Both the position numbers and the translations under genes were made by a program. The notes under the pieces are model-generated. The model had not been told where the DNA came from. It did not search any database and was given only the letters and a program-made list of their open reading frames with translations. A DNA stretch of 13,124 nucleotides from an uncultured archaeon. Lineage in GTDB: Archaea; Asgardarchaeota; Heimdallarchaeia; Heimdallarchaeales; Kariarchaeaceae. Below are positions 146 through 13,123 of the stretch, piece after piece. Where the stretch lies: NCBI GenBank assembly GCA_964645535.1, contig CAZYCQ010000077.1, positions 1 to 13,124 on the forward strand, given 5' to 3'. Numbering within the stretch: the first letter of the stretch is position 1; the number at the start of each line of letters is the position of its first letter.

Positions 146-826
146 ATGAATCATATGACACAATCGATTGCTGATTTTTTTCCGATATTGGGAATCATTT
201 TTGATATGGATGGTGTATTGGCTGATACCGAACCTCTTTCCTGTCTTGCATTTCGAAAGGCTATTGAAGAAGTTGTTGGTTTTGATATGGGTGAAGATTA
301 TCGTCCTATAATTGGTCTTTCGCTTCGTGATGCGGTTGAATTAATTTCTCAAAAATTTGGTCGTTCTATTTCTTCTGTTGAACTTCAAACCATTAGTGAA
401 CGAAAGGAGGAGATTTATTTTCAAATTGCAAAAGGGCGATTGGTTCGAACCGTTGGCTTGGACAACTTCCTTGAATGGCTGTCTCAATCCGATATCGGTT
501 TTGCTATAGCGTCTTCTGGATCCATCGATAAGATCCGTTTCACTCTCACAGAGTTAGATCTTATAGATTTCTTCCAGAACAGGTATTTTTCATCAAGCAT
601 GGTTCAAAAAGGAAAACCATTTCCTGATTTATTCAATTATGTTGCAAAAAAAATGGGGTGGCCTGCTGAAAAAGTTATTGTGATTGAGGATTCTCCTTTA
701 GGGATTCAGGCTGCAATTGCTGCCAACATGATTCCCATCGGTCTCACTTCTTCATTCTCCTTCAATATCCTCCAATCTGCGGGTGCACGTATGATTGTGC
801 AGAATTTTGTGGAATTACTCCCTTAA
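146..826 (+). CDS. HAD-superfamily phosphatase (subfamily IA, beta-phosphoglucomutase/CbbY-like)
   Basis: Motif I FDMDGVLADTE, motif II IASSG, motif III KGKPFPD, motif IV IEDSPLGIQAA. Start could be ATG146 or ATG155. Substrate cannot be determined from sequence. Confidence 0.93.
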   Translation: MNHMTQSIADFFPILGIIFDMDGVLADTEPLSCLAFRKAIEEVVGFDMGEDYRPIIGLSLRDAVELISQKFGRSISSVELQTISERKEEIYFQIAKGRLVRTVGLDNFLEWLSQSDIGFAIASSGSIDKIRFTLTELDLIDFFQNRYFSSSMVQKGKPFPDLFNYVAKKMGWPAEKVIVIEDSPLGIQAAIAANMIPIGLTSSFSFNILQSAGARMIVQNFVELLP

Positions 827-868
827 TTACTAAAAATTTATAATAACTTCACAAATTCAGTATTTTAT

Positions 869-893
869 GTAAAAAAATGCATATATTATATAA
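869..893 (+). promoter_or_regulatory. Possible TATA promoter for the cyclase gene
   Basis: GTAAAAAAA followed by TTATATAA (886-893), ~33 nt upstream of ATG926, in a 99-nt AT-rich spacer. Confidence 0.4.
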
Positions 894-925
894 CAATAAG
901 TCGCAACTTAGCAGGGATTACCATC

Positions 926-2446
926 ATGTATAATGAGTACCAAATTCAGGCCAATGATCTGGTAGCAAATTTTGGCGAGGGGACGATGCCCGGTGTAATC
1001 TATGATACTGCAATCGTTGGTTCCTTGAAAGATAACGTTGACTCTCCCTTGTTTCCTTATCAGGTTGAATATGTCTTGAAACGGCAATATGGAGATGGGT
1101 CTTGGGGTGCACCCAATCCGCTTCCATATGACCGACTGATGTCAACCGCAGCAGTGCTGTATATGATGGTGGAATTGAATATCCACAAAAAACCTTTTTT
1201 TGAACCTTTTTTTGAAAAAGGAGTTGGATGGTTGGAAGAGAATTATCGTACGGCCATGGAATCCAAATACCCTCGAACAGTGGGGTTTGAATTCATTTAC
1301 CCTTATTTGATTTCAACCATTCTTAGTGGAAGTTCTTCACTTTCTGATAAGGTGCGTTTTTCAACCCTCGACAAATTGGTCGAACAGAAACTGGAGATTT
1401 TTGGTGAAGGCATATATCGTGTTCATACCCCTTTGGTATTTTCTGCTGAAGGGATCGTCAGGGATATTTCCCATGCCAACATGATTTCATCTTTGCAGTC
1501 TGAAAATGGTTCGTTGGGGGCATCGCCCTCTGCAACTACGGTACTCCTCAAGTATCCGATCTCAAATACACGTGCCAAACGACAGGCATTCCAATATCTC
1601 AAGGAATCGATCCTTCCCGACCAATCTGTTGTTCATTTTAAAGACTATACTTACATGAATATTGTCTATTCCTTATATCCCTTGTTCAAGGCAGGCTTTC
1701 AAATTGGATCTGGGACTGTTTTTCTGACTAACCGTATTCTGAATGGATGGACTGATTATGGTCTTTCATTTGGGAAGGCCTTTAAGGTTCCTGATGCTGA
1801 CGATACTTCGGTTGCATTGGTTGATCTTCATTACATGGGACTGCCGAATTTGGATCGATATGCTGAGGCTCTTAAATATTATGAGGCGGAAGACCATTAC
1901 AAGACCTATCCTGGAGAACTGGGTCAATCAATGCTGAACAACCTTCATGTCCTTGACTACCTATTGACGACTGGGAAAGAGGAAAACATCGAGAAAGGGG
2001 CTAAAGTTCTTCGTTTCATTGAGGAGAAGTTGCGAGATAACCCACATCAGTTGGGGAAATATCATTCTTCGTTGGCATACCAAATGGGGAGCATGCTTCT
2101 GTCAATGTTTCCTCATCTCTCTGAACATGCCCATCCCTACGTTATTCGATTGGAAGTCCTGCTTCGGGATTTCATTGAAGCTCCTGAAACCCATTATCTG
2201 ACAGATGAGGAATTGGCAGCATCTATTTTCGGGTTGCTTCATGCCCATCATCACGGTGTGGACATAAACTGTGATTTGGTTCGCCGCGGGTTTGAAATTT
2301 TGCGGGTTCGCACCCATGGAGGAAAATTGCCGGATTATGCCCCTCTTTGGATGTCTAAAGTTGCCTATTCCCCGACGCACATTGTCAGATCCAATGTTTT
2401 GGCTGGCTTGATGTACTATGAAAGAATGAAGGATGTTTGTTTCTGA
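926..2446 (+). CDS. Class II terpene cyclase, beta-gamma didomain diterpene cyclase (copalyl/halimadienyl/kolavenyl diphosphate synthase family)
   Basis: Ordered family motifs: YDTA, QYGDGSWG (QW repeat), DRLMSTAA, VGFEFIYP, LVFSAEG, QSENGSLGASPSAT, catalytic DADD (nt 1793-1804, D290-D293), NLHVL, KYHSSLAY (cf. KWHxSxxY), EELA, PLWMSKVAYSP. At 506 aa it matches bacterial CPS/Rv3377c-type enzymes and is too short for SHC/OSC. Confidence 0.9.
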   Translation: MYNEYQIQANDLVANFGEGTMPGVIYDTAIVGSLKDNVDSPLFPYQVEYVLKRQYGDGSWGAPNPLPYDRLMSTAAVLYMMVELNIHKKPFFEPFFEKGVGWLEENYRTAMESKYPRTVGFEFIYPYLISTILSGSSSLSDKVRFSTLDKLVEQKLEIFGEGIYRVHTPLVFSAEGIVRDISHANMISSLQSENGSLGASPSATTVLLKYPISNTRAKRQAFQYLKESILPDQSVVHFKDYTYMNIVYSLYPLFKAGFQIGSGTVFLTNRILNGWTDYGLSFGKAFKVPDADDTSVALVDLHYMGLPNLDRYAEALKYYEAEDHYKTYPGELGQSMLNNLHVLDYLLTTGKEENIEKGAKVLRFIEEKLRDNPHQLGKYHSSLAYQMGSMLLSMFPHLSEHAHPYVIRLEVLLRDFIEAPETHYLTDEELAASIFGLLHAHHHGVDINCDLVRRGFEILRVRTHGGKLPDYAPLWMSKVAYSPTHIVRSNVLAGLMYYERMKDVCF

Positions 2447-2469
2447 ATGCATTATTGGAAAAACTGCAT

Positions 2470-2500
2470 GTGACGATATTTGGTGACGATACGTTTAAAA
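2470..2500 (+). promoter_or_regulatory. TATA box (TTTAAAA, 2494-2500) preceded by a tandem 9-bp direct repeat GTGACGATA
   Basis: TATA begins 30 nt upstream of GTG2524, which fits a leaderless archaeal transcript. Exact repeats lie at 2470-2478 and 2483-2491. Confidence 0.55.
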
Positions 2501-2523
2501 TCTACAACATCCGCTGAAAATCC

Positions 2524-3510
2524 GTGTCTATGTTGGATTTTTTCCTGAATGAGTTCTATGCGCCCTCAATTTTGATCTTGGCTGGGATTCACCTTCTGAT
2601 ATTGCTGATATCCGCAAAATTAGACTTTTCTGCATTGCGATCCCTTGCACTTTCCTCTTTTCCGATGATATTGATGACTCTTCTGTTTCTTCAGCGGGCT
2701 GTGGACGCTGGTGTGAATTGGTATGGGGAAATCATGCCTCTTTCTATTCTTGTAACCTTATTCATTACTGAGTTCATGTTTTTCTCTTCAATGCAGAGCT
2801 ATATTGCAACCTATTCGAAAACTGAGCTTTGGTTGTCCATTTTCTATGCGACCTTCTTGCTTAATTGGCTTATTATTTTCGTTGATCACACCCTGACCAT
2901 TGGCAGTCTTCAACCGGAAAACATACTCTTCGTCAGATTTGCGGGATCGACTATGCTGAATTTGGCTTTGGCAGAAGCCTTGGCACTGTATTTTATTGGA
3001 AAATACATGTTCTACCCCGATTATCCATATATGTCAATTTTTGAACCGATTCTCTTCATCGTTTATGGGGTGGTGATGGGATTGAATTGGGGTGGGCTTT
3101 CCAATGGTTCCTATTTTACTCCGGAAGCTTTTCATACCTACGGCTTTTTCTTCCCTGAACCCTTTTGGCTATTTGGAACAATCACCGGCATTTTTGTGGT
3201 GGTTCCTCAGTTCTTGATTGCCTATTTCGGGAGAAAATATTCTCTTGAGATCCTGGAGGACCGAACCTTGCTTTCCTCCTTGGATCCTTATCTTGTGCCA
3301 AGGTTACGGTGGATTGGTCGTGCAACATATATATTTGCCATTGGTGTCACTCTTTCCTTCTTCATTCTTGTGGGTTCATTCCAATTCAACGTGGAGTTTT
3401 TGGCGATTTTCAGTCCATGGATTGCTTCCCTTTTATTCATAATGGTTTCTGCCATCTTCTATATGGCTTTTCAATCTCCGGAAACCTTACGAAAAATCGT
3501 CTCCAAATAA
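2524..3510 (+). CDS. Integral membrane protein of unknown function, ~9 predicted TM helices
   Basis: Long ORF with ~9 hydrophobic stretches, ending in an amphipathic basic tail FYMAFQSPETLRKIVSK. GTG start (or ATG2530). No enzyme motif recognised. Confidence 0.8.
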   Translation: MSMLDFFLNEFYAPSILILAGIHLLILLISAKLDFSALRSLALSSFPMILMTLLFLQRAVDAGVNWYGEIMPLSILVTLFITEFMFFSSMQSYIATYSKTELWLSIFYATFLLNWLIIFVDHTLTIGSLQPENILFVRFAGSTMLNLALAEALALYFIGKYMFYPDYPYMSIFEPILFIVYGVVMGLNWGGLSNGSYFTPEAFHTYGFFFPEPFWLFGTITGIFVVVPQFLIAYFGRKYSLEILEDRTLLSSLDPYLVPRLRWIGRATYIFAIGVTLSFFILVGSFQFNVEFLAIFSPWIASLLFIMVSAIFYMAFQSPETLRKIVSK

Positions 3511-3561
3511 CTCTCGAAGACCAAAACATCTATATTTCTGTTAAAACATGAAGAAACTAAG

Positions 3562-5253
3562 TTGACTGATATCGAACGGTTTCACGCGTTGAAAAACGAG
3601 CTTGGGCGGTCTGGGGCTCGGCTGTCATATCGTGCAGACCGATCCCGGCGGATTGTGGAAATCAGTATCTCCAATTCTTTTGACTTGATTGATCTGACTC
3701 CTTTGACTGATTTCAAGGCCTTGAAAACCGTCATTCTTGACAACAATACGTTTACAAGACTTGACCTGTCTCCCCTGAAGGATCTGCCAATGCTTTCTCA
3801 CTTGGAGTTGGCTGAAAATGATGGTCTTGAAATGCTTGACCTATCTCCCCTGACTAACCTTCCATTTCTCCATCGTCTCATCATCAACCGTAATTCAATC
3901 AGGGTATTGAAGACCAAGCCTCTAGGTGACATGCACAGTCTTGTCCACCTTAATCTAAGAGAAGTAGGGGGTATCAACAACACCAATTTCTCGCGAAGAT
4001 GGTATATCTATGATTATTGGAACCGCAATCGATACTACCAGGACTGCGAAGCTAGGGGACTGGAACGCTATGCTCTTGACAGGGAGGATTGTCAAAGTAC
4101 TCTGCATACTCTCGATCTGCGTTTTTTGGAAAACCATCCTTCCCTTCGATACGTAGATCTCTCCTACAATCGTGGAACTCGAAAATATATTCTTCCAAGG
4201 AGACCACCTGCCGCACTGGAGTATATTGATCTGTCTGTGAATGAGCTCGGCAGCCTTGATTTCAGGACTCTTGCCACTCCTTACATGCACGAAATCATTG
4301 TAAAGGAAGGGGGATTGGATCGTGTTTCTTTGGAAATGGATTCCGATTTCAAAAGTCTCGGCAAACTCAACCTGTCCCATAATCGATTGGAAGAACTTGA
4401 TCTCTCCCCGCTCGAACCTCTCTACAACCTCCATACGTTGGATTTGTCCCGAAACCGACTGAAATCCATTGATCTCCGACCTCTTGAAGGAAAGCTTAAT
4501 CTGGTCTATCTTAGTCTTGAATCCAATGATTTGCGGCATGTTGATCTCTCTCCCCTGAAAAACCTTCCCAGACTACAGGTTCTCAGACTTGGCGACAATC
4601 TGCTTGAGACGATTGATCTCTCTCCGTTGGCCACTGTTCCCGAACTCAGGGTAATCCGGCTCACCCGCAACAGGTTGGTGGAAGTGGATATCGATCCACT
4701 TAGCTTCTGTCGTAAGTTGCAGCGGGTTCAGCTTGCCAGAAATCGTCTCCGGAGGCTCTCTTTGGAACCTCTTCGGGACATTGTCACCTTGGAGGAAATC
4801 AATTTGGACAGAAATGATTTCGAGGAACTGGATATCTCTGCAATTGAATCCATGCCGCACATTGATTTTATCGACTTACGAGATACCACGCGTCACACCA
4901 AAATTGATTTTACCCCTGTCTTAACATCTGAGGCGAGCTGGGTTCAATTCGATGAAGGCATCAATATCGAAATCGATCCTGAAAAGCTGAAGGACGCAGA
5001 TATCAAGAATTCCTCTTTGTTGAATGATCCAATTGTTGAAGATGCCATTGATTTCAAGAACAACTCGGACAAATTGGTTGAGGCAAAAAATCCATACATT
5101 GCCACTCGTGCGATTCAAGAAAATATGGATCTTGATGAGCTCTTGATTCTCCGTTTTATTGAGAACCGTCCTGAAGTTGCATCCATGCTTTCACGCCGGA
5201 TCAATGAATTGAAACGGATGCAGGAACAGGAAAAAAAGAAGAACAAATCATAG
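3562..5253 (+). CDS. Leucine-rich repeat protein (~16 repeats of ~24 aa, LxxLxLxxNxLxxLDLSPL) with an internal island and a helical C-terminal domain
   Basis: Repeats such as LGKLNLSHNRLEELDLSPLEPLYN, LHTLDLSRNRLKSIDLRPLEGKLN and LQVLRLGDNLLETIDLSPLATVPE. TTG start. No signal peptide or TM segment seen. Confidence 0.93.
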   Translation: MTDIERFHALKNELGRSGARLSYRADRSRRIVEISISNSFDLIDLTPLTDFKALKTVILDNNTFTRLDLSPLKDLPMLSHLELAENDGLEMLDLSPLTNLPFLHRLIINRNSIRVLKTKPLGDMHSLVHLNLREVGGINNTNFSRRWYIYDYWNRNRYYQDCEARGLERYALDREDCQSTLHTLDLRFLENHPSLRYVDLSYNRGTRKYILPRRPPAALEYIDLSVNELGSLDFRTLATPYMHEIIVKEGGLDRVSLEMDSDFKSLGKLNLSHNRLEELDLSPLEPLYNLHTLDLSRNRLKSIDLRPLEGKLNLVYLSLESNDLRHVDLSPLKNLPRLQVLRLGDNLLETIDLSPLATVPELRVIRLTRNRLVEVDIDPLSFCRKLQRVQLARNRLRRLSLEPLRDIVTLEEINLDRNDFEELDISAIESMPHIDFIDLRDTTRHTKIDFTPVLTSEASWVQFDEGINIEIDPEKLKDADIKNSSLLNDPIVEDAIDFKNNSDKLVEAKNPYIATRAIQENMDLDELLILRFIENRPEVASMLSRRINELKRMQEQEKKKNKS

Positions 5254-6477
5254 CTGTTTGAAAACCTCCTCTTTGATTTCAAGCAAGGTTTTGCTGATAT
5301 TGTGATCCAACAGGTTCCAATCGACATTGCCTAAAGGTAGACTGACAATCCATATTGTAACACCATATTTGTGGAATTTGAAGATCACTGGCTTGCTTGT
5401 TTCCTTCTCCACTCCCGGGTAGAACAGCACTCCGAACTTTGAGTTTTGGAACAGGGCATAGCTAAGGATTTGATAGAAATCGGCATGAACACGCAATTCC
5501 TTCTGGGACAGGTCTACAAACTTGTATTTCGCATCCCCAACCATAGTTATATTTCTTCTTTCCTCGGTGATGAGTATGTCTGGTCGGTATACAATTAATT
5601 TGGCATTCTTTGCGGTCACTCGTAATGAGACGTTGGATCTTACGGAAAATTCCCTTAAGTAGTCTGCAACAACTCTAAACACAAATGTTTCATATAGCTT
5701 GTTCATGTTCAGAATAAAGGTAGAAAAGACAACATTCCCGACCTGTTGCCCAATGGAATGTCCACTAGCGATCAGCAGACAAAGGGTCAGGATGGGTTGA
5801 TAATGATTGTCCTGCCTTTTCAGTCCTTCGATTGCATTTTCAATTTCTTGAATGGTGAAATCTCTTGATGTTACCTTTTTCAGTTTATGGTATTGCCTTA
5901 CAAATTGTTTTGAAAGGCTAGGATTCATTCCTCGGACAATTGAAATTGATTTGCGTATGGTAAATTTGAGGATCTGGTTCAGAATTTGATCTTCACTGAA
6001 ATCATCTGTTTCTGAAATGATCTTTATGGATCCTGAAATATTTTCTCTCAGGGTTTTGATCCTATCGATTTTCCCACGGACATTTGTTCCCTTGATGAGT
6101 TTCTGATGGTATCTCCTTCTGATCAATCTTGGAACGAACTCCTCAATGAGTTTGAGGAAATGATGAAAAACATACAATCCCTCTTCTTCAATTCGTTTCA
6201 GTTTGATTGTATGGGAATGAGACCAAAGCTTACTAGAGGAACGCGCAATCAGGTAAAATATGGAGATGTATGGAATTTTCGGCATGAGTCGGATTTTCAC
6301 TCTGCTTAGACTGATGAACCCTGCCATTGGTCCGACGCGAATTCGATATTTTGTTCCTCCCAATGGATGGAGTGAGATCTGTTTTGTTTGTTCCATCACC
6401 TTTCTCATGTACCTCAAATCCTTTTTTCCAAGATCCAGATCAATTTCTCCAAATTCTCTGACTCTAATTTCCTTCAT
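5248..6477 (-). CDS. mcrC: McrC-family modification-dependent restriction endonuclease subunit
   Basis: N-terminal MAGFISL...IRLMPKI, VRGKID, DFSEDQILNQILK, MNKLYETFV, PD-(D/E)xK core RPDILI...GDAKYK, ADFYQILSY, GVLFYP. Its ATG directly abuts the mcrB TGA, with GGTGA just upstream. Confidence 0.92.
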   Translation of the reverse strand: MKEIRVREFGEIDLDLGKKDLRYMRKVMEQTKQISLHPLGGTKYRIRVGPMAGFISLSRVKIRLMPKIPYISIFYLIARSSSKLWSHSHTIKLKRIEEEGLYVFHHFLKLIEEFVPRLIRRRYHQKLIKGTNVRGKIDRIKTLRENISGSIKIISETDDFSEDQILNQILKFTIRKSISIVRGMNPSLSKQFVRQYHKLKKVTSRDFTIQEIENAIEGLKRQDNHYQPILTLCLLIASGHSIGQQVGNVVFSTFILNMNKLYETFVFRVVADYLREFSVRSNVSLRVTAKNAKLIVYRPDILITEERRNITMVGDAKYKFVDLSQKELRVHADFYQILSYALFQNSKFGVLFYPGVEKETSKPVIFKFHKYGVTIWIVSLPLGNVDWNLLDHNISKTLLEIKEEVFKQL

Positions 6478-8016
6478 TCATTCACCCAAAAAATTCAGGA
6501 CAAGTCCTTCTCTGGAAACCTTATCTCCATTTTCTCTAAAGATCTCCATTCCCAAAATGTCATTGATGAATTCCCTGTCTTGGAAAAAGATGTCCTCTAA
6601 AAGGGGGATGATCTCATAATAGATCATGTCGCCGATGGTCTTTTCCTCCAAATCCTTGAGCATGAAATACGAATGGCCGATTCTGGCATCTGGCTCGACT
6701 TGTTCCATGATTTTCGAATTGATCCTATTGAATAGTTCAATCAATTTTTCAACAATTGGATTGTTCCCCATTCCCAAGTCATCAAAATGCTCTTGAATGA
6801 GAGAATCATCGGGTAGCACTTCAACAAACAGAAATCTCCTTCTGATTGCCAAGTCCATCTCTGCCAGAGATCGATCGGAAGTGTTCATTGTTCCTATGAT
6901 GTATAGATTGTTGGGAACCGCTATTTTCTTCCCATGAGTGATTTCCAGAGGTTCATTTCTGTACTCCAAGGAATATAGGAGTTCTCCGAAAACTTTTGGA
7001 AGATTGGCTCTGTTGATTTCATCAATTATTAGGCAATAGGATTTGTCGGGGTTCTTTTTTGCCATTTCCACAAGGTTGAGGAAATGTCCATTTCTGAATT
7101 CATAGTTAACCTTGCCATTGACTAATTTCGGAAATATTCCTCCAAAGAAGTCCTCATACCCGTAACTAGGATGAAACTGCACAAACTTTACTTGGTCGCA
7201 TTTTTCAGCAACCTTTCTTGCCAGAAAGGTCTTGCCAGTGCCTGGAACCCCATAATAGATCATCTGCTTTTTCTGTTGGAGAAGTTTCCAATGATCATTG
7301 ACAATGGGGTCTCTTTCTTCAATCATAGTGCCTTCTCTTTCCAGATCCTTCAAGAATGCATCAAAAGTGTAATTTTCATCCACTTCTTCACCTGGTTGTT
7401 GAAGTTTTCTTTTCAACCTTTCCAGTTCTTCGATTGCCTCGAGCAGGAAAGGAATCTCAATCTTTTGAATTTCACTTTCTTGGATGCTGATCCCCATAAA
7501 TCCTGGTGGTGTCGCTTTTACATTTGAACTGGCGGTTGGGTTCAAATTCCATTCAATCTCCAATTCCTCCTTTATCAAAAAGGGTTCTATAATGATCATG
7601 TGAAAACTCTTCTCCTTATTTTCAAGGAGGTATTTGTACAGGTTTTCCACTGAATAGACTGCATATCTGTGAATATATCGGGCAAGTTCAAGTATGCCTT
7701 CTCTTGTTTTAGGAATCCTGATATTCTCTACTTTGCGGATTTTCCCAATGACGTCAACCTTTGTCAATCCTTGATCCCCAAGATCTTCAAATATCCATTT
7801 TTCTTTTTCTCGTGTTCCCCAAACTTCATGGAGGTTTGTCTTGATCTGTCGTTTTGTTTCTCTCTTTGGAAATTTCGGGATAAGGGCAATAAACTCATGG
7901 TCGCTTTTGTATTCTCCTCCTCCGACAACGACACAAATCTTTCCCTTTTTCATGGAAATGTTTACGGATCCCCAAACAAGATAGGTGTCTTCAATAAATT
8001 CTGGTATCTCTCCCAT
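6478..8016 (-). CDS. mcrB: McrB-family AAA+ GTPase with an uncharacterised N-terminal domain
   Basis: Walker A GVPGTGKT, FVQFHPSYGYEDF, Walker B IIDEINRAN, VFGEL, McrB signature GTMNTSDRS (NxxD), AIRRRF, IGHSYF. Confidence 0.94.
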   Translation of the reverse strand: MGEIPEFIEDTYLVWGSVNISMKKGKICVVVGGGEYKSDHEFIALIPKFPKRETKRQIKTNLHEVWGTREKEKWIFEDLGDQGLTKVDVIGKIRKVENIRIPKTREGILELARYIHRYAVYSVENLYKYLLENKEKSFHMIIIEPFLIKEELEIEWNLNPTASSNVKATPPGFMGISIQESEIQKIEIPFLLEAIEELERLKRKLQQPGEEVDENYTFDAFLKDLEREGTMIEERDPIVNDHWKLLQQKKQMIYYGVPGTGKTFLARKVAEKCDQVKFVQFHPSYGYEDFFGGIFPKLVNGKVNYEFRNGHFLNLVEMAKKNPDKSYCLIIDEINRANLPKVFGELLYSLEYRNEPLEITHGKKIAVPNNLYIIGTMNTSDRSLAEMDLAIRRRFLFVEVLPDDSLIQEHFDDLGMGNNPIVEKLIELFNRINSKIMEQVEPDARIGHSYFMLKDLEEKTIGDMIYYEIIPLLEDIFFQDREFINDILGMEIFRENGDKVSREGLVLNFLGE

Positions 8017-9174: not shown

Positions 9175-9345
9175 TACTGGTAGCAAAAACCTATTACTGG
9201 TTATGTCTTGTTCCCCAATATTCCTATATCTGTCATCTATTTTAAGGTTAACGGTAGCCTTTTAAGGTTTCGATTTCGTATTTTTCACCGCATCAAGGCA
9301 AGTTCGAGACGCCATCTTTATCAATCGCCGATTTTCGCATTACTT

Positions 9346-10578
9346 GTGCACCTGAACAGAGAAGAAGAGGCCATCCTTCAAGGAGAGCAGGGGGAAGCCT
9401 TGGCTACCGCGCTCTCACTATTGGTCGATGTCGGTGACTTTTATGAAGCCTCTCATTTGTTACCCATCGGATCTGCTCATATTTCGGGCGTTTCATATTT
9501 GACGGGTGGGGATGGGCTGATTGACCAGTTGGATTATTTTGTGGATCTGGGTGCTACTGTGCGCGTTTATTCCACGTTGAACCCATCCGGCATGGATCGT
9601 AACCATTGGCAGGATCATTACATTGACTTGGAATTTGCAACCAAACAGTTTCGTATCCTTGACAACTTCAAACGTTTGGGGGTCATAACCACACTCAGTT
9701 GTACACCCTATGATTTTGGACACATTCTGACGAAGGGTCAACATGTAGCTTGGGCCGAATCCTCTGCCATTACCTTCGCCAACTCGTTCTTTGGAGCTAG
9801 GACAAACAAGGAGGATGCCCTTTCTGTATTGGCTGCCGCCATCGTTGGCAAAACCCCCAATTATGGGTTCCATCTTTCAGAAAACCGAATTCCGAATGTT
9901 AGAGTCAAGGTGGAGGCCGCCATTCATGACTATTCCGATTATTCCGTCTTGGGAGAGGTTGTAGGCATGGCATTCAATCATCATCCTTTCCCATATGGTG
10001 CCATACCATTGTTTGAGGGCATTCGCAATCCTCGACCCCATCATCTTAAAGGTCTCGGAGCTGCCTTGGCATCGTTCGGAACGCAGTTGTTCCATGTCGA
10101 AGGTGTAACTCCGGAGGTCGAATTGTATGAAAATGTCTCCGATTTTGAGGATGAATTGGTGGTGGAACAATCTCAATTGGATGAAATCTATGAACACCTC
10201 AAGCCTGATTTCGATCCCAAAATTGCCGTAATAGGATGTCCCAATGCGAATTTGGAAGAGATCCGCGAAGTCGTCCAGGCTATTGGCAATCGAAGACTCA
10301 AAAATGGAAAGGAATTTTGGGTATTTACCAATCGTGCACAAAAAGGAATGGCTGAGGCCGTAGGACTTGTGGAAACGCTCGAAAAGGCAGGTGTAAAGAT
10401 CTTGGTTGATACTTGTCCTGAAGTGACCCCTTATGACAAGGATCGTTTTGATCGGATTTTGACCAATTCCATCAAGGCACAACATTATATATCTGCGCCT
10501 AGCCTCAACGGAATCCCCACATACCTGCTCCCATTAAGGAAGTGTGTGGATCTGCTTTTTGAGGAGGTTGATGGATGA
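9346..10578 (+). CDS. Aconitase X catalytic subunit; probable phosphomevalonate dehydratase large subunit (archaeal mevalonate pathway)
   Basis: Family N-terminus (M)HLNREEEAILQGEQG from GTG9346. Motifs HISGVSY, TLNP, SCTPY, AWAESSA, NSFFGARTN, GKTPNYGFH, GCP, DTC, TNSIKAQHY, with three Fe-S-ligand-type Cys. Followed by the swiveling-domain subunit. Confidence 0.88.
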   Translation: MHLNREEEAILQGEQGEALATALSLLVDVGDFYEASHLLPIGSAHISGVSYLTGGDGLIDQLDYFVDLGATVRVYSTLNPSGMDRNHWQDHYIDLEFATKQFRILDNFKRLGVITTLSCTPYDFGHILTKGQHVAWAESSAITFANSFFGARTNKEDALSVLAAAIVGKTPNYGFHLSENRIPNVRVKVEAAIHDYSDYSVLGEVVGMAFNHHPFPYGAIPLFEGIRNPRPHHLKGLGAALASFGTQLFHVEGVTPEVELYENVSDFEDELVVEQSQLDEIYEHLKPDFDPKIAVIGCPNANLEEIREVVQAIGNRRLKNGKEFWVFTNRAQKGMAEAVGLVETLEKAGVKILVDTCPEVTPYDKDRFDRILTNSIKAQHYISAPSLNGIPTYLLPLRKCVDLLFEEVDG

Positions 10579-10988
10579 AGCTCATTGGTAAGCCGCTAAG
10601 GTCCATGGGGGATATGGTTATTGAAGGAGAGGCAATTGTAACCTCTCAACCTATCACTCTATTGGGATTCGTTGATGCCACTACTGGAAAGATTGTGGAA
10701 GAAGATCATGAACTGTTTGGTCAAAGCATTACTGGGAAGATTTTTGTTTTTCCCAAGGGAGTGGGAAGTACAGTTGGTCCGTATGTCCTTCTTAATCTCA
10801 AAAAAAATGGCAAGGCACCCTTGGCTATCATCAATCGGGAATCTGATCAGGGGACGATCTCTGGGTGTTCCGTTGCAAAAATTCCAATGATTTATCGATT
10901 GGACAGGGATCCTGTTACATCTATTCGTACTGGAGACAGGGTCAAGATTGTTGTTGCACACGGGTCTGCCATTGTTGAAGTTATGTAG
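10575..10988 (+). CDS. Aconitase X swiveling-domain subunit (DUF126); probable phosphomevalonate dehydratase small subunit
   Basis: EGEAIV, GFVDATTGKI, HELFGQSITGKIFVFPKGVGSTVG (catalytic Ser motif), GKAPLAII, IPM. ATGA overlap with the upstream gene and an SD-like GGAGGT. Confidence 0.9.
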   Translation: MKLIGKPLRSMGDMVIEGEAIVTSQPITLLGFVDATTGKIVEEDHELFGQSITGKIFVFPKGVGSTVGPYVLLNLKKNGKAPLAIINRESDQGTISGCSVAKIPMIYRLDRDPVTSIRTGDRVKIVVAHGSAIVEVM

Positions 10989-11614: not shown

Positions 11615-13123
11615 CTAAAATTTTGTCTTTCGTTTCAAAATTATCACTTTGGCTGCAATCATTGGTGCAAGCACTGCCAGCCAACCGATCGGACTTCCAT
11701 TTTCCGAGGATTTTTCACTTGTGCTTGGTGGTAACGGTTTTCCGGAGACTATATCTGTCCTGTTGCTTTCTCCGATTACATTGACTGCTGCCACCTTATA
11801 GTAGTAGTTGAATGCGGAAATGGTGTTTGTATCTGTAAACTCAGTTTCTTCAGTGCTTCCCCAAATGATGAAAATTCCATTCGGTGATGTGGAACGATAT
11901 ATGTTATACTTGATGATGGGTGTTCCTCCATCACTGAGGGGCTTTTCCCATTTCAGGGTAAGTTGGTTCACTCCCTGTTCCAATACCACATTCCGCGGTT
12001 CGGAGGGTGGGGTCAGCATGCCATAACTTGTATTGATATAGATGTCGTGAGACTTGAACCCCTCATTGGATGAATTGTCCGTAGCTGAGATCTGATAGTC
12101 ATAGATGGTGTTTTCTGCGGCATTGGTGTCTGTATAGGTGGTTTCATGGGTGGTTACAAGTGGGGTGCCGTTCCTGTACACTGTATAATGGCTTAGATCT
12201 TCCGCATCACTGGCATCCCATTGCAACTTTACATCGGCTCCATCAAGATTTCCCTTGACATGATAGATTCTTGCAGGGGGACGAAGATCCGCGAGTTCTG
12301 GATTGAGGTTGAACCAAGCATTGACCGGAAAATGGTCTGATGCTTCTTCAACCCCCGGAACTGTTGAGACGGTGGAATTGATGAGCATGTCGAAAAAGAA
12401 TTGATTGACAATAATGAAATCGATTCTCGACTGATAGAAATCATCAATGAAAGTATATCCCAAATCAAGTGGATTCAGTTCCCGATATACATCCACGAAT
12501 TCATGAAGTTGCGAGGCATGTGGATGTGAACTGTTGAGCATCATCTCTACAGGGCCATATCCCAAATTGTCGCCCGAATTCAGAACCTTGACATCAAAGG
12601 GATTGAAGGAGTTCAAATCTCCTGCATAAATGATTGGGACATCTCCCAATTGATCCATGTAATTCAGAATTCCCTCTGTATCCTGTTCCCGATTTTGCTG
12701 TTCTATCCCTGTTCCGGTGTCACAGCATTTTAAATGAGCTCCAAAAATATGGGTTACCAGTCCACTGATATTGACAACTGCATCCATGAAGGGATTATGG
12801 GCTTCCTTTGTCGATCCATCATCTAATGTCAGCGTTGCAACGGTTGTCCCATTGATGATGGGATATCTAGAAAATATTGTTTCTCCAGCGGTTCCTGAAG
12901 GATTGTCTGTAGTGGCCCAAACCTCATAGGGTTGTTCATCTGCAAAGTATTCGTTGAACTCTCGCTGTATTGACCGAAGTACCCCATCATCGGATCCATC
13001 CCATTTCCCGGTTTCCACTGCTACCAAGATGTCTGGGTTTTCCGCCTTGACAATGTCCTTCCATGCGGGGTTGGCACCTGTTTCACGAATGTTGTAGGTC
13101 ATCATCTTGAAGACCTCTGGCAC
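11615..13123 (-). CDS. Surface-anchored endonuclease/exonuclease/phosphatase (EEP) domain protein with two fibronectin type III domains; 5' end lies outside the window
   Basis: EEP motifs TYNI, PDILVAVE, FSRYPI, HLK, GDLN, SRIDFI, SDHFPV. FN3 patterns VKLQW...YTVYRNG...YQISA and PSEPRN...LKWEKP..DGG.PI..Y..Y...YKVAAVN..GES. S/T/P-rich linker, hydrophobic helix and basic tail KRKTKF. The frame is open to the window edge. Confidence 0.9.
   Translation of the reverse strand: MPEVFKMMTYNIRETGANPAWKDIVKAENPDILVAVETGKWDGSDDGVLRSIQREFNEYFADEQPYEVWATTDNPSGTAGETIFSRYPIINGTTVATLTLDDGSTKEAHNPFMDAVVNISGLVTHIFGAHLKCCDTGTGIEQQNREQDTEGILNYMDQLGDVPIIYAGDLNSFNPFDVKVLNSGDNLGYGPVEMMLNSSHPHASQLHEFVDVYRELNPLDLGYTFIDDFYQSRIDFIIVNQFFFDMLINSTVSTVPGVEEASDHFPVNAWFNLNPELADLRPPARIYHVKGNLDGADVKLQWDASDAEDLSHYTVYRNGTPLVTTHETTYTDTNAAENTIYDYQISATDNSSNEGFKSHDIYINTSYGMLTPPSEPRNVVLEQGVNQLTLKWEKPLSDGGTPIIKYNIYRSTSPNGIFIIWGSTEETEFTDTNTISAFNYYYKVAAVNVIGESNRTDIVSGKPLPPSTSEKSSENGSPIGWLAVLAPMIAAKVIILKRKTKF

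Follow-up and report, generated by a model that had tools for sequence, protein, structure and literature searches.

Diterpenoid cyclases of Asgard archaea have been described by McShea, De Anda, Brocks, Welander, and Baker (bioRxiv 10.1101/2025.02.07.637177), who reported 31 of these proteins, mostly from Heimdallarchaeia, including two Heimdall enzymes that convert geranylgeranyl diphosphate (GGPP) to halimadienyl diphosphate in vitro, as well as an Rv3378c-like adenosyl transferase in one genome. A 2026 PNAS review restates these findings. Here, we examined the complete 13,124-bp contig CAZYCQ010000077.1 (C77; hereafter, the window) from the 3.6-Mb, 89.4% complete assembly of an uncultured Heimdallarchaeia archaeon (G000), which encodes a cyclase of the same kind. 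Like those of McShea et al., it is a beta-gamma class II protein of ~500 amino acids (aa) from a Heimdall metagenome-assembled genome (MAG), and it has the DxD acid, a residue of H341 type, and an aromatic side chain where W380 lies. Neither the enzyme class, nor its occurrence in Heimdall archaea, nor its likely product is new; the window protein is a new member of the family. The main text of the preprint contains no gene-neighborhood analysis and does not mention the hydrophobic protein encoded beside our cyclase, herein termed TM9, the GTPase/longin operon found in relatives, or HAD phosphatase and leucine-rich repeat (LRR) neighbors. We consider it probable (roughly 0.6) that the functional unit within positions 146-5253 is a two-gene cassette, comprising the cyclase and TM9, which in this genus is flanked by a HAD gene on one side and the LRR-TFB-AcnX backbone on the other, with TM9 as the membrane-side partner of halimadane chemistry. 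In the literature searched, we found no report of the cyclase-TM9 pairing, of the seven-transmembrane (7TM)-like fold of TM9, or of its operon with Arf-like, longin, and Rv3378c-like genes in sister lineages.

The 1-tuberculosinyladenosine (1-TbAd) locus of Mycobacterium tuberculosis consists of Rv3376 (HAD), Rv3377c (halimadienyl/tuberculosinyl diphosphate synthase), and Rv3378c (tuberculosinyl adenosine transferase, PDB 3WQK). The window and its relatives resemble it in having a full-length Rv3377c-type cyclase, in the HAD gene beside the window cyclase, which corresponds to Rv3376 at the level of position and superfamily, and in the Rv3378c homolog that adjoins the cyclase in the relatives (E 2.2e-9). 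They differ from M. tuberculosis in the DxDD rather than DxDTT motif, in that an Rv3378c-like gene was not found in the window's genome, and in that the conserved partner is a 7TM-like membrane protein that has no M. tuberculosis equivalent. An Rv3377c-type class II cyclase and an Rv3378c-type enzyme also occur outside mycobacteria in the O-methylkolavelool cluster of Herpetosiphon aurantiacus (Haur_2145/2146/2147; Nakano et al. 2015). According to the literature on that cluster, it is unlike the window in being bacterial, in its kolavenyl product, in having a methyltransferase as the third gene, and in that no membrane partner is described.

The cyclase gene (926..2446, forward strand) encodes 506 aa. 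In phmmer searches against the PDB, its first match was 6vpt_A (501 aa; E 2.8e-26; query residues 17-497 against chain residues 14-495), which we take to be M. tuberculosis Rv3377c, and the aligned chain carries a DCDTT motif, consistent with that identity. Plant and bacterial copalyl diphosphate (CPP) synthases were the next matches, and the ent-CPP synthase 5bp8 aligned over its full length. No Pfam model matched the protein. It has two QW-like motifs, and a squalene-hopene cyclase assignment was discarded, the match to TIGR01507 (E 0.006 only) reflecting the shared QW repeat. The general-acid motif, D290-A-D292-D293, aligned to the DCDTT of 6VPT, and across 28 homologs D290, D292, and H341 were invariant, while the column of Y379, which corresponds to W380 in the 6VPT alignment, held only Y, F, or W. 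The acid motif, H341, and an aromatic residue at W380 are the criteria used by McShea et al. (bioRxiv 10.1101/2025.02.07.637177). A HMMER scan of 1.84 billion representative sequences returned 646 relatives, only seven of which were close (E below 1e-70). Homologs from named organisms came from Candidatus Heimdallarchaeota MAGs. The accessions of experimentally tested Asgard cyclases were not among the members of the homolog clusters. A match on G079:C551 is, judging by its contig number, probably one of the functional enzymes of McShea et al.; since it shares only 25% identity with the window cyclase, we infer the product of the latter, which is most probably halimadienyl (tuberculosinyl) diphosphate. 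The proposal of a class II diterpene cyclase turning GGPP into a bicyclic diphosphate, first made in a sequence-only reading of this DNA, is upheld as a prediction by the full-length 6vpt_A alignment, the DxDD motif, H341, and the aromatic residue at W380. The soluble enzyme would protonate GGPP, the archaeal lipid precursor, via the D290-x-D-D293 acid, positioned by H341, and the resulting bicyclic C20 diphosphate would most probably be halimadienyl diphosphate, as for the two other Heimdall enzymes in vitro.

TM9 is encoded directly downstream (2524..3510, forward strand; likely start, the ATG at 2530) and is a hydrophobic protein of 328 aa with nine transmembrane helices. We compared its linkage to the cyclase across Asgard relatives (loci and genomes labeled L and G, respectively), and observed four arrangements. 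In the window's genus, HAD-CYC-TM9-LRR (type C; CYC, cyclase) was present in the window, L001, L003/L041 (from G053), and L042 (from G054), the latter a short contig that begins inside the cyclase, ends at TFB, and shows the order CYC-TM9-LRR. The cyclases of these close relatives have 59-89% identity to that of the window, and the region HAD-CYC-TM9-LRR-TFB-AcnX-Ras-EEPfn3 is kept in them; because the entire region is syntenic, the close relatives are uninformative on function. At distant cyclase loci (37-45% identity), a TM9 homolog was present (24-31% identity, E 1e-14 to 3e-40), and neither HAD nor LRR genes were found. These loci had the order ArfL-p151-TM9-p273-Rv3378L-CYC (type A; Rv3378L, Rv3378c-like) in L005, L007/L008, and L045/G042, which was partial in L046/G043, where the contig ends after TM9, and shortened to TM9-Rv3378L-CYC in L010/G047. 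In type B (L044/G045), Rv3378L-CYC was followed by TM9 on the opposite strand, and in type D (L092), Rv3378L and a 797-aa gene preceded CYC-TM9.

Among 400 Asgard genomes, nine had a match to the cyclase, 10 to TM9, and eight to the Rv3378c-like protein, nearly all of them in two families of one order. Of the seven genomes that had a close relative of the window cyclase, six encoded TM9 no more than 3 kb away from their cyclase, and the seventh, G055, was without TM9. Two of the TM9 genes, in G043 and G052, were on very short contigs. The conserved unit is the cyclase plus TM9, which are adjacent in all four arrangements, down to 37% cyclase identity. Comparing the neighborhoods of cyclase homologs across Asgard MAGs had been suggested with the sequence-only reading, and of the linkages it envisaged, that of TM9 was conserved, while those of HAD and LRR did not extend beyond the genus. 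Two further candidate associations were rejected: the N-terminal extension of the cyclase homolog P0040 does not match TM9, and the gene downstream of the cyclase on the short contig L090 is not TM9. A predicted complex of the cyclase and TM9 (alignments A4 and A3) scored 0.17 against a mark of 0.32 and was used as evidence neither way.

TM9 had no Pfam or NCBIfam match at E-values up to 1. No homologs were found outside Heimdall archaea, profile scans of metagenome and genome contigs gave no new loci, and in the protein collection the TM9 profile recovered nothing further except a shorter version of the TM9 gene call in L010. By these sequence searches, TM9 is a new, Heimdall-restricted family. 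The AlphaFold2 model (pLDDT 74.6, medium confidence; pTM 0.77) has nine transmembrane helices, arranged as two N-terminal helices, a 7TM core resembling that of G protein-coupled receptors (GPCRs), and a helix-8-like tail. Residues 62-328, that is, the last seven helices and the short terminal helix, matched 7TM receptors in three structure searches. With VIA-align, the top 50 of 48,161 chains were all GPCR or rhodopsin folds (Z 14.1-16.9, 213-259 residues, rmsd 3.4-5.0), although helical bundles reach Z ~14 by arrangement alone and the match is fold-level evidence only. Foldseek against the PDB returned class A GPCRs (E ~1e-3, TM-score ~0.5), and the ESM Atlas returned 7TM sensor domains of bacterial histidine kinases and GGDEF proteins, GPCRs, and an Asgard cluster, with TM-scores of 0.57-0.60. 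The positive-inside rule places the N terminus outside and the C terminus inside, as in GPCRs, and a hairpin occupies a position like that of extracellular loop 2.

TM9 shares the seven-helix bundle, this orientation, and the short helix after TM7 with 7TM receptor folds, which comprise GPCRs, the HisKA_7TM and GGDEF-linked bacterial modules, and 7TM proteins listed as Asgard eukaryotic signature proteins. It is unlike them in its ~8% identity, the lack of a Pfam 7TM match, and its two extra N-terminal helices. Additionally, and unlike GPCR systems, no heterotrimeric G protein is present; the neighbors of TM9 in relatives are an Arf-like GTPase and longin proteins. Among 13 homologs, no charged residue was conserved within the helix cores, and the conserved polar residues (K160, E174, D254, R260, K/R262, Q317, and R323) were all at cytoplasmic helix ends or in cytoplasmic loops. 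On the model, this pattern fits a lipophilic-ligand binder with a conserved cytoplasmic docking surface better than an enzyme. TM9 would then bind a lipophilic ligand and present its cytoplasmic surface to partner proteins, and a halimadane product, whether the diphosphate, the alcohol, or a nucleoside adduct, would act jointly with it in a membrane signaling or membrane-remodeling circuit. The sequence-only reading had proposed that the multi-pass membrane protein handles or senses the cyclase product. Its linkage to the cyclase in four arrangements and its 7TM receptor-like shape both favor this, and a make-and-handle or make-and-sense pairing is plausible.

TM9 might instead serve the pathway as a transporter or membrane enzyme, that is, an exporter or flippase for a halimadane lipid or nucleoside, or a transferase to a membrane acceptor, a lesser possibility but one to be taken seriously. 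Such a protein would equally be expected to stay next to the cyclase and the Rv3378c-like gene, and an export step is to be anticipated given that 1-TbAd is released from M. tuberculosis cells (bioRxiv 10.1101/2025.02.07.637177; PMC11476799). Moreover, 7TM-like bundles also occur in proteins that are not receptors, and microbial rhodopsins were among the matches. However, the helices of TM9 lack a conserved Asp-rich, His, or Arg/Lys motif, with all conserved polar positions being cytoplasmic, and the absence of conserved intramembrane charge argues against an enzyme acting on prenyl diphosphates. Neither transporter nor prenyltransferase families from Pfam or NCBIfam were matched, and the GTPase and longin proteins that share an operon with TM9 in relatives suit signaling or trafficking better than catalysis. 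UbiA- and PAP2-type enzymes, specifically, were lowered in weight, since no family was matched and the membrane helices keep no acidic or basic motif.

The type A operon of sister lineages gives context to what TM9 may do as partner of the cyclase. Together with the adjoining cyclase, its genes form a six-gene cluster in L005:9537-13733 (-), L007:152-6132 (+), and L045:285-6255 (+), with gaps of 16-30 nt in L005 and 25-73 nt in L007 and, in both, a 4-nt overlap of p273 and the Rv3378c-like gene. ArfL is an Arf-family GTPase (Pfam Arf, 2.4e-39) with an N-terminal extension of ~130 aa, and p151 is a 151-aa protein with roadblock/longin-like leads. The model of p273 has two longin-like modules, the first of which resembles subunits of Mon1-Ccz1, BLOC-3, and CPLANE (Z 10-11.7; Foldseek E 1.6e-6). 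In a phylum-wide profile search, true orthologs of p273 were present only in G042 and G044, other matches being weak and of generic longin type, and for this reason a general 7TM-longin-GTPase module is not established. The halimadane pathway is nonetheless repeatedly encoded together with signaling-type membrane proteins and GTPase-regulatory proteins, which keeps the 'make and sense' idea alive with TM9, and not the LRR protein, as the candidate sensor. A bolder version, which we regard as speculative and rather doubtful, is that TM9 acts in these prokaryotes as a 7TM receptor whose ligand, a halimadane diterpenoid or terpene nucleoside, the cell makes itself, and that it signals in type A through Mon1/Ccz1-like longin proteins to the Arf-like GTPase, with the window holding a reduced version composed of ligand synthase and receptor.

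The enzyme usually found with the cyclase in relatives is a transferase. In types A, B, and D, the gene next to the cyclase encodes a 291-319-aa protein that matched the Rv3378c structure 3wqk at the E-value given above and keeps the DGTRR motif; the gene was detected in G053, G054, G055, G045, G047, and G042. In P0038 (803 aa) and P0055 (828 aa), a C-terminal class II cyclase is preceded by a domain that resembles Rv3378c (hhalign probability 98.5% against the archaeal profile), and these natural fusions provide Rosetta-stone support for the cyclase-transferase pairing. In the three genomes of the window's genus, G053, G054, and G055, the Rv3378c-like gene was located at unlinked sites that differed from each other and therefore appears mobile within the genus. 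Neither single-protein nor profile searches found it in the window's 89.4%-complete assembly. The G053 site (L049:2828-5760) comprises an amidohydrolase, the Rv3378c-like gene, and a PNPOx/CREG-like gene, and at G000:C30:10261-12150 the same two flanking genes are 207 bp apart with the Rv3378c-like gene missing. Hence, the gene is truly absent at the syntenic locus of the window's genome and, within the limits of an 89%-complete assembly, may be absent from the organism. The end product there is uncertain because the transferase and the GTPase and longin genes were not found; it could be halimadienol, formed by an unspecific phosphatase or by the HAD phosphatase, or the diphosphate itself. As separate observations, proteins with an MCPsignal domain lay beside the cyclase or the Rv3378c-like gene at three other Heimdall loci (L044:7045-8265 (-), L052:519-2102 (-), and L043:11552-12757 (-)), and in L052 the gene after the Rv3378c-like one encodes 616 aa that include a prenyltransferase alpha-alpha toroid domain.

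The sequence-only reading had joined the cyclase and TM9 with the HAD and LRR genes in a four-gene module, in which HAD would remove the diphosphate to give a bicyclic diterpene alcohol that the membrane and LRR proteins handle or sense. The four genes do lie on the forward strand as it described (open reading frames 146-826, 926-2446, 2524-3510, and 3562-5253), in a genome that is archaeal as claimed, given its TFB (NF001658, 8e-136) and nearest homologs in Candidatus Heimdallarchaeota MAGs. The order HAD-CYC-TM9-LRR recurs with short gaps in L001 and L003/L041, as does CYC-TM9-LRR in L042, and in L003 the gene calls for TM9 and LRR overlap. Furthermore, the 1-TbAd locus likewise includes a HAD gene, Rv3376, the deletion of which lowers 1-TbAd without abolishing it (PMC11476799), and with the Rv3378c-like gene missing at its syntenic site another enzyme that removes the diphosphate would be needed. 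Even so, the four-gene module is unlikely. The adjacency of HAD and LRR to the cyclase is confined to a single genus in which the whole region, including TFB, AcnX, Ras, and EEP-fn3, is syntenic, and G053, which has the order HAD-CYC-TM9-LRR, still possesses an Rv3378c-like gene.

The HAD gene (146..826, forward strand) encodes a HAD-IA (beta-PGM-like) phosphatase (Pfam HAD_2, 1.3e-26) with the nucleophile motif DMDG in its translation, and is a genus-level neighbor of the cyclase with a putative pathway role. It scored above the cutoff of TIGR01509, and its best NCBIfam matches, of beta-phosphoglucomutase/YqaB type, were well below equivalog cutoffs. The best PDB matches were generic HAD-IA variant 3 sugar-phosphate phosphatases. 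The window, L001, and L003 were the only loci at which it was seen beside the cyclase, and a HAD profile search of the regions flanking type A, B, and D loci detected no HAD-IA gene; there, the usual enzyme is the Rv3378c-like transferase; the downstream role proposed for HAD was accordingly not borne out. The LRR protein (3562..5253, forward strand; 563 aa; Pfam LRR_8, 2.7e-29) does contain the aromatic/Cys island noted earlier, at about aa 134-180. However, the island was invariant in six of six orthologs, including those of G055 and G052, and by this comparison is a feature of the LRR family and not of a cyclase-linked receptor. In G055, a same-genus genome of 10 contigs (93% complete), the genes run EEPfn3-AcnX-AcnXsw-LRR-TFB-Ras, and in G052 they run LRR-TFB-AcnXsw-AcnX, both without cyclase or TM9 at that place, such that the LRR gene does not belong to the terpenoid module as had been suggested. 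The best HAD homolog of G055 (38-40% identity) lies 7.5 kb from its cassette-free LRR-TFB block. With synteny confined to one genus and LRR/TFB blocks that lack the cassette, HAD and LRR are therefore backbone genes, LRR being tied to TFB, and the simplest reading is that, in part of the genus, the CYC-TM9 cassette sits between HAD and LRR genes that were there already.

Several observations weigh against the two-gene cassette as we propose it. The gaps among the four genes, of 99, 77, and 51 nt, are rich in A and T and contain TATA-like runs, so that the earlier caveat of a TATA box for each gene was apt and, judging from these sequences, each of the four may have a separate promoter. In the 400-genome search, G055 had a divergent cyclase and TM9 was not found, while G044 had ArfL-p151-TM9-p273 and no cyclase was found. 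The fold match concerns a helical bundle at ~8% identity in a medium-confidence model, and Z-values near 14 are seen for unrelated helical proteins. Related class II cyclases can form other bicyclic skeletons, which, with the distance to G079:C551, bears on the predicted product. Finally, homologs of ArfL, p151, and p273 were not found in the window's genome, and with the Rv3378c-like gene also lacking, the circuit inferred from relatives is therefore incomplete there.

Some of these points would be explained if the adjacency of cyclase and TM9 were functionally meaningless, with TM9 being part of an Arf-GTPase/longin module and the cyclase simply occupying the same variable region, or if the pathway were decaying. 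The gene contents of G044 and G055 are what such scenarios would predict, the presence of EEP-fn3 near the cyclase in both types A and C hints at residual ancestral synteny, and loss of the Rv3378c-like gene at the syntenic site in the window's genome would fit decay. Yet the pair has remained adjacent through four rearrangements despite loss of the GTPase genes, strand flips, and changed flanks, and in L003 only 15 nt separate the cyclase from TM9. Moreover, both genes are intact, and the catalytic residues of the cyclase are kept. We consider meaningless adjacency or decay quite improbable, and retain the cassette of cyclase and TM9 as the preferred reading.

The remainder of the window consists largely of the conserved block downstream of the LRR gene. 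Between LRR and TFB are McrC (PF10117, 8.5e-33) and McrB-like AAA_5 genes on the reverse strand (5248-8016), an insert that was seen only in the window's genome; the same position has no insert in L003 or L042 and an unrelated 455-aa gene in L001. The McrC/McrB pair looks like a defense-gene insertion into the conserved block. TFB, downstream of these genes, is followed on the forward strand at 9208-10988 by the AcnX large subunit (PF04412, 1.3e-123) and its small swivel subunit, and then by a Ras-family GTPase. In its heterodimeric form, archaeal AcnX serves the archaeal mevalonate pathway as phosphomevalonate dehydratase (PMC8184944, PMC10040528), which puts an enzyme of isoprenoid-precursor synthesis within a few kb of the cyclase, yet AcnX is a backbone gene that is beside TFB in cassette-free genomes too. 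A secreted-type protein with EEP (Exo_endo_phos) and fn3 domains is encoded at 11615-13123 on the reverse strand. In type A loci, EEP-fn3 genes with 39-40% identity directly follow the cyclase (L007:6372-9644 and L045:6552-9527), and its proximity to the cyclase in both this type and the window's genus may be residual ancestral synteny.

These results narrow the candidate module from four genes to two, HAD and LRR having been dropped since their linkage to the cyclase does not extend past one genus and LRR stays beside TFB where the cassette is lacking. What halimadanes do in Heimdall archaea is a question that the 2025 preprint posed, and TM9 now supplies a concrete candidate partner. Its pairing with the cyclase makes a role of the terpenoid in signaling or membrane trafficking directly testable, the alternative put forward to date being an antacid function comparable to that of M. 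tuberculosis 1-TbAd. If TM9 does prove to be a receptor for such a compound and to signal through the type A longin and GTPase proteins, there would be a cascade from a lipid ligand through a 7TM protein and a longin-type guanine nucleotide exchange factor to a small GTPase in the archaeal lineage closest to eukaryotes.

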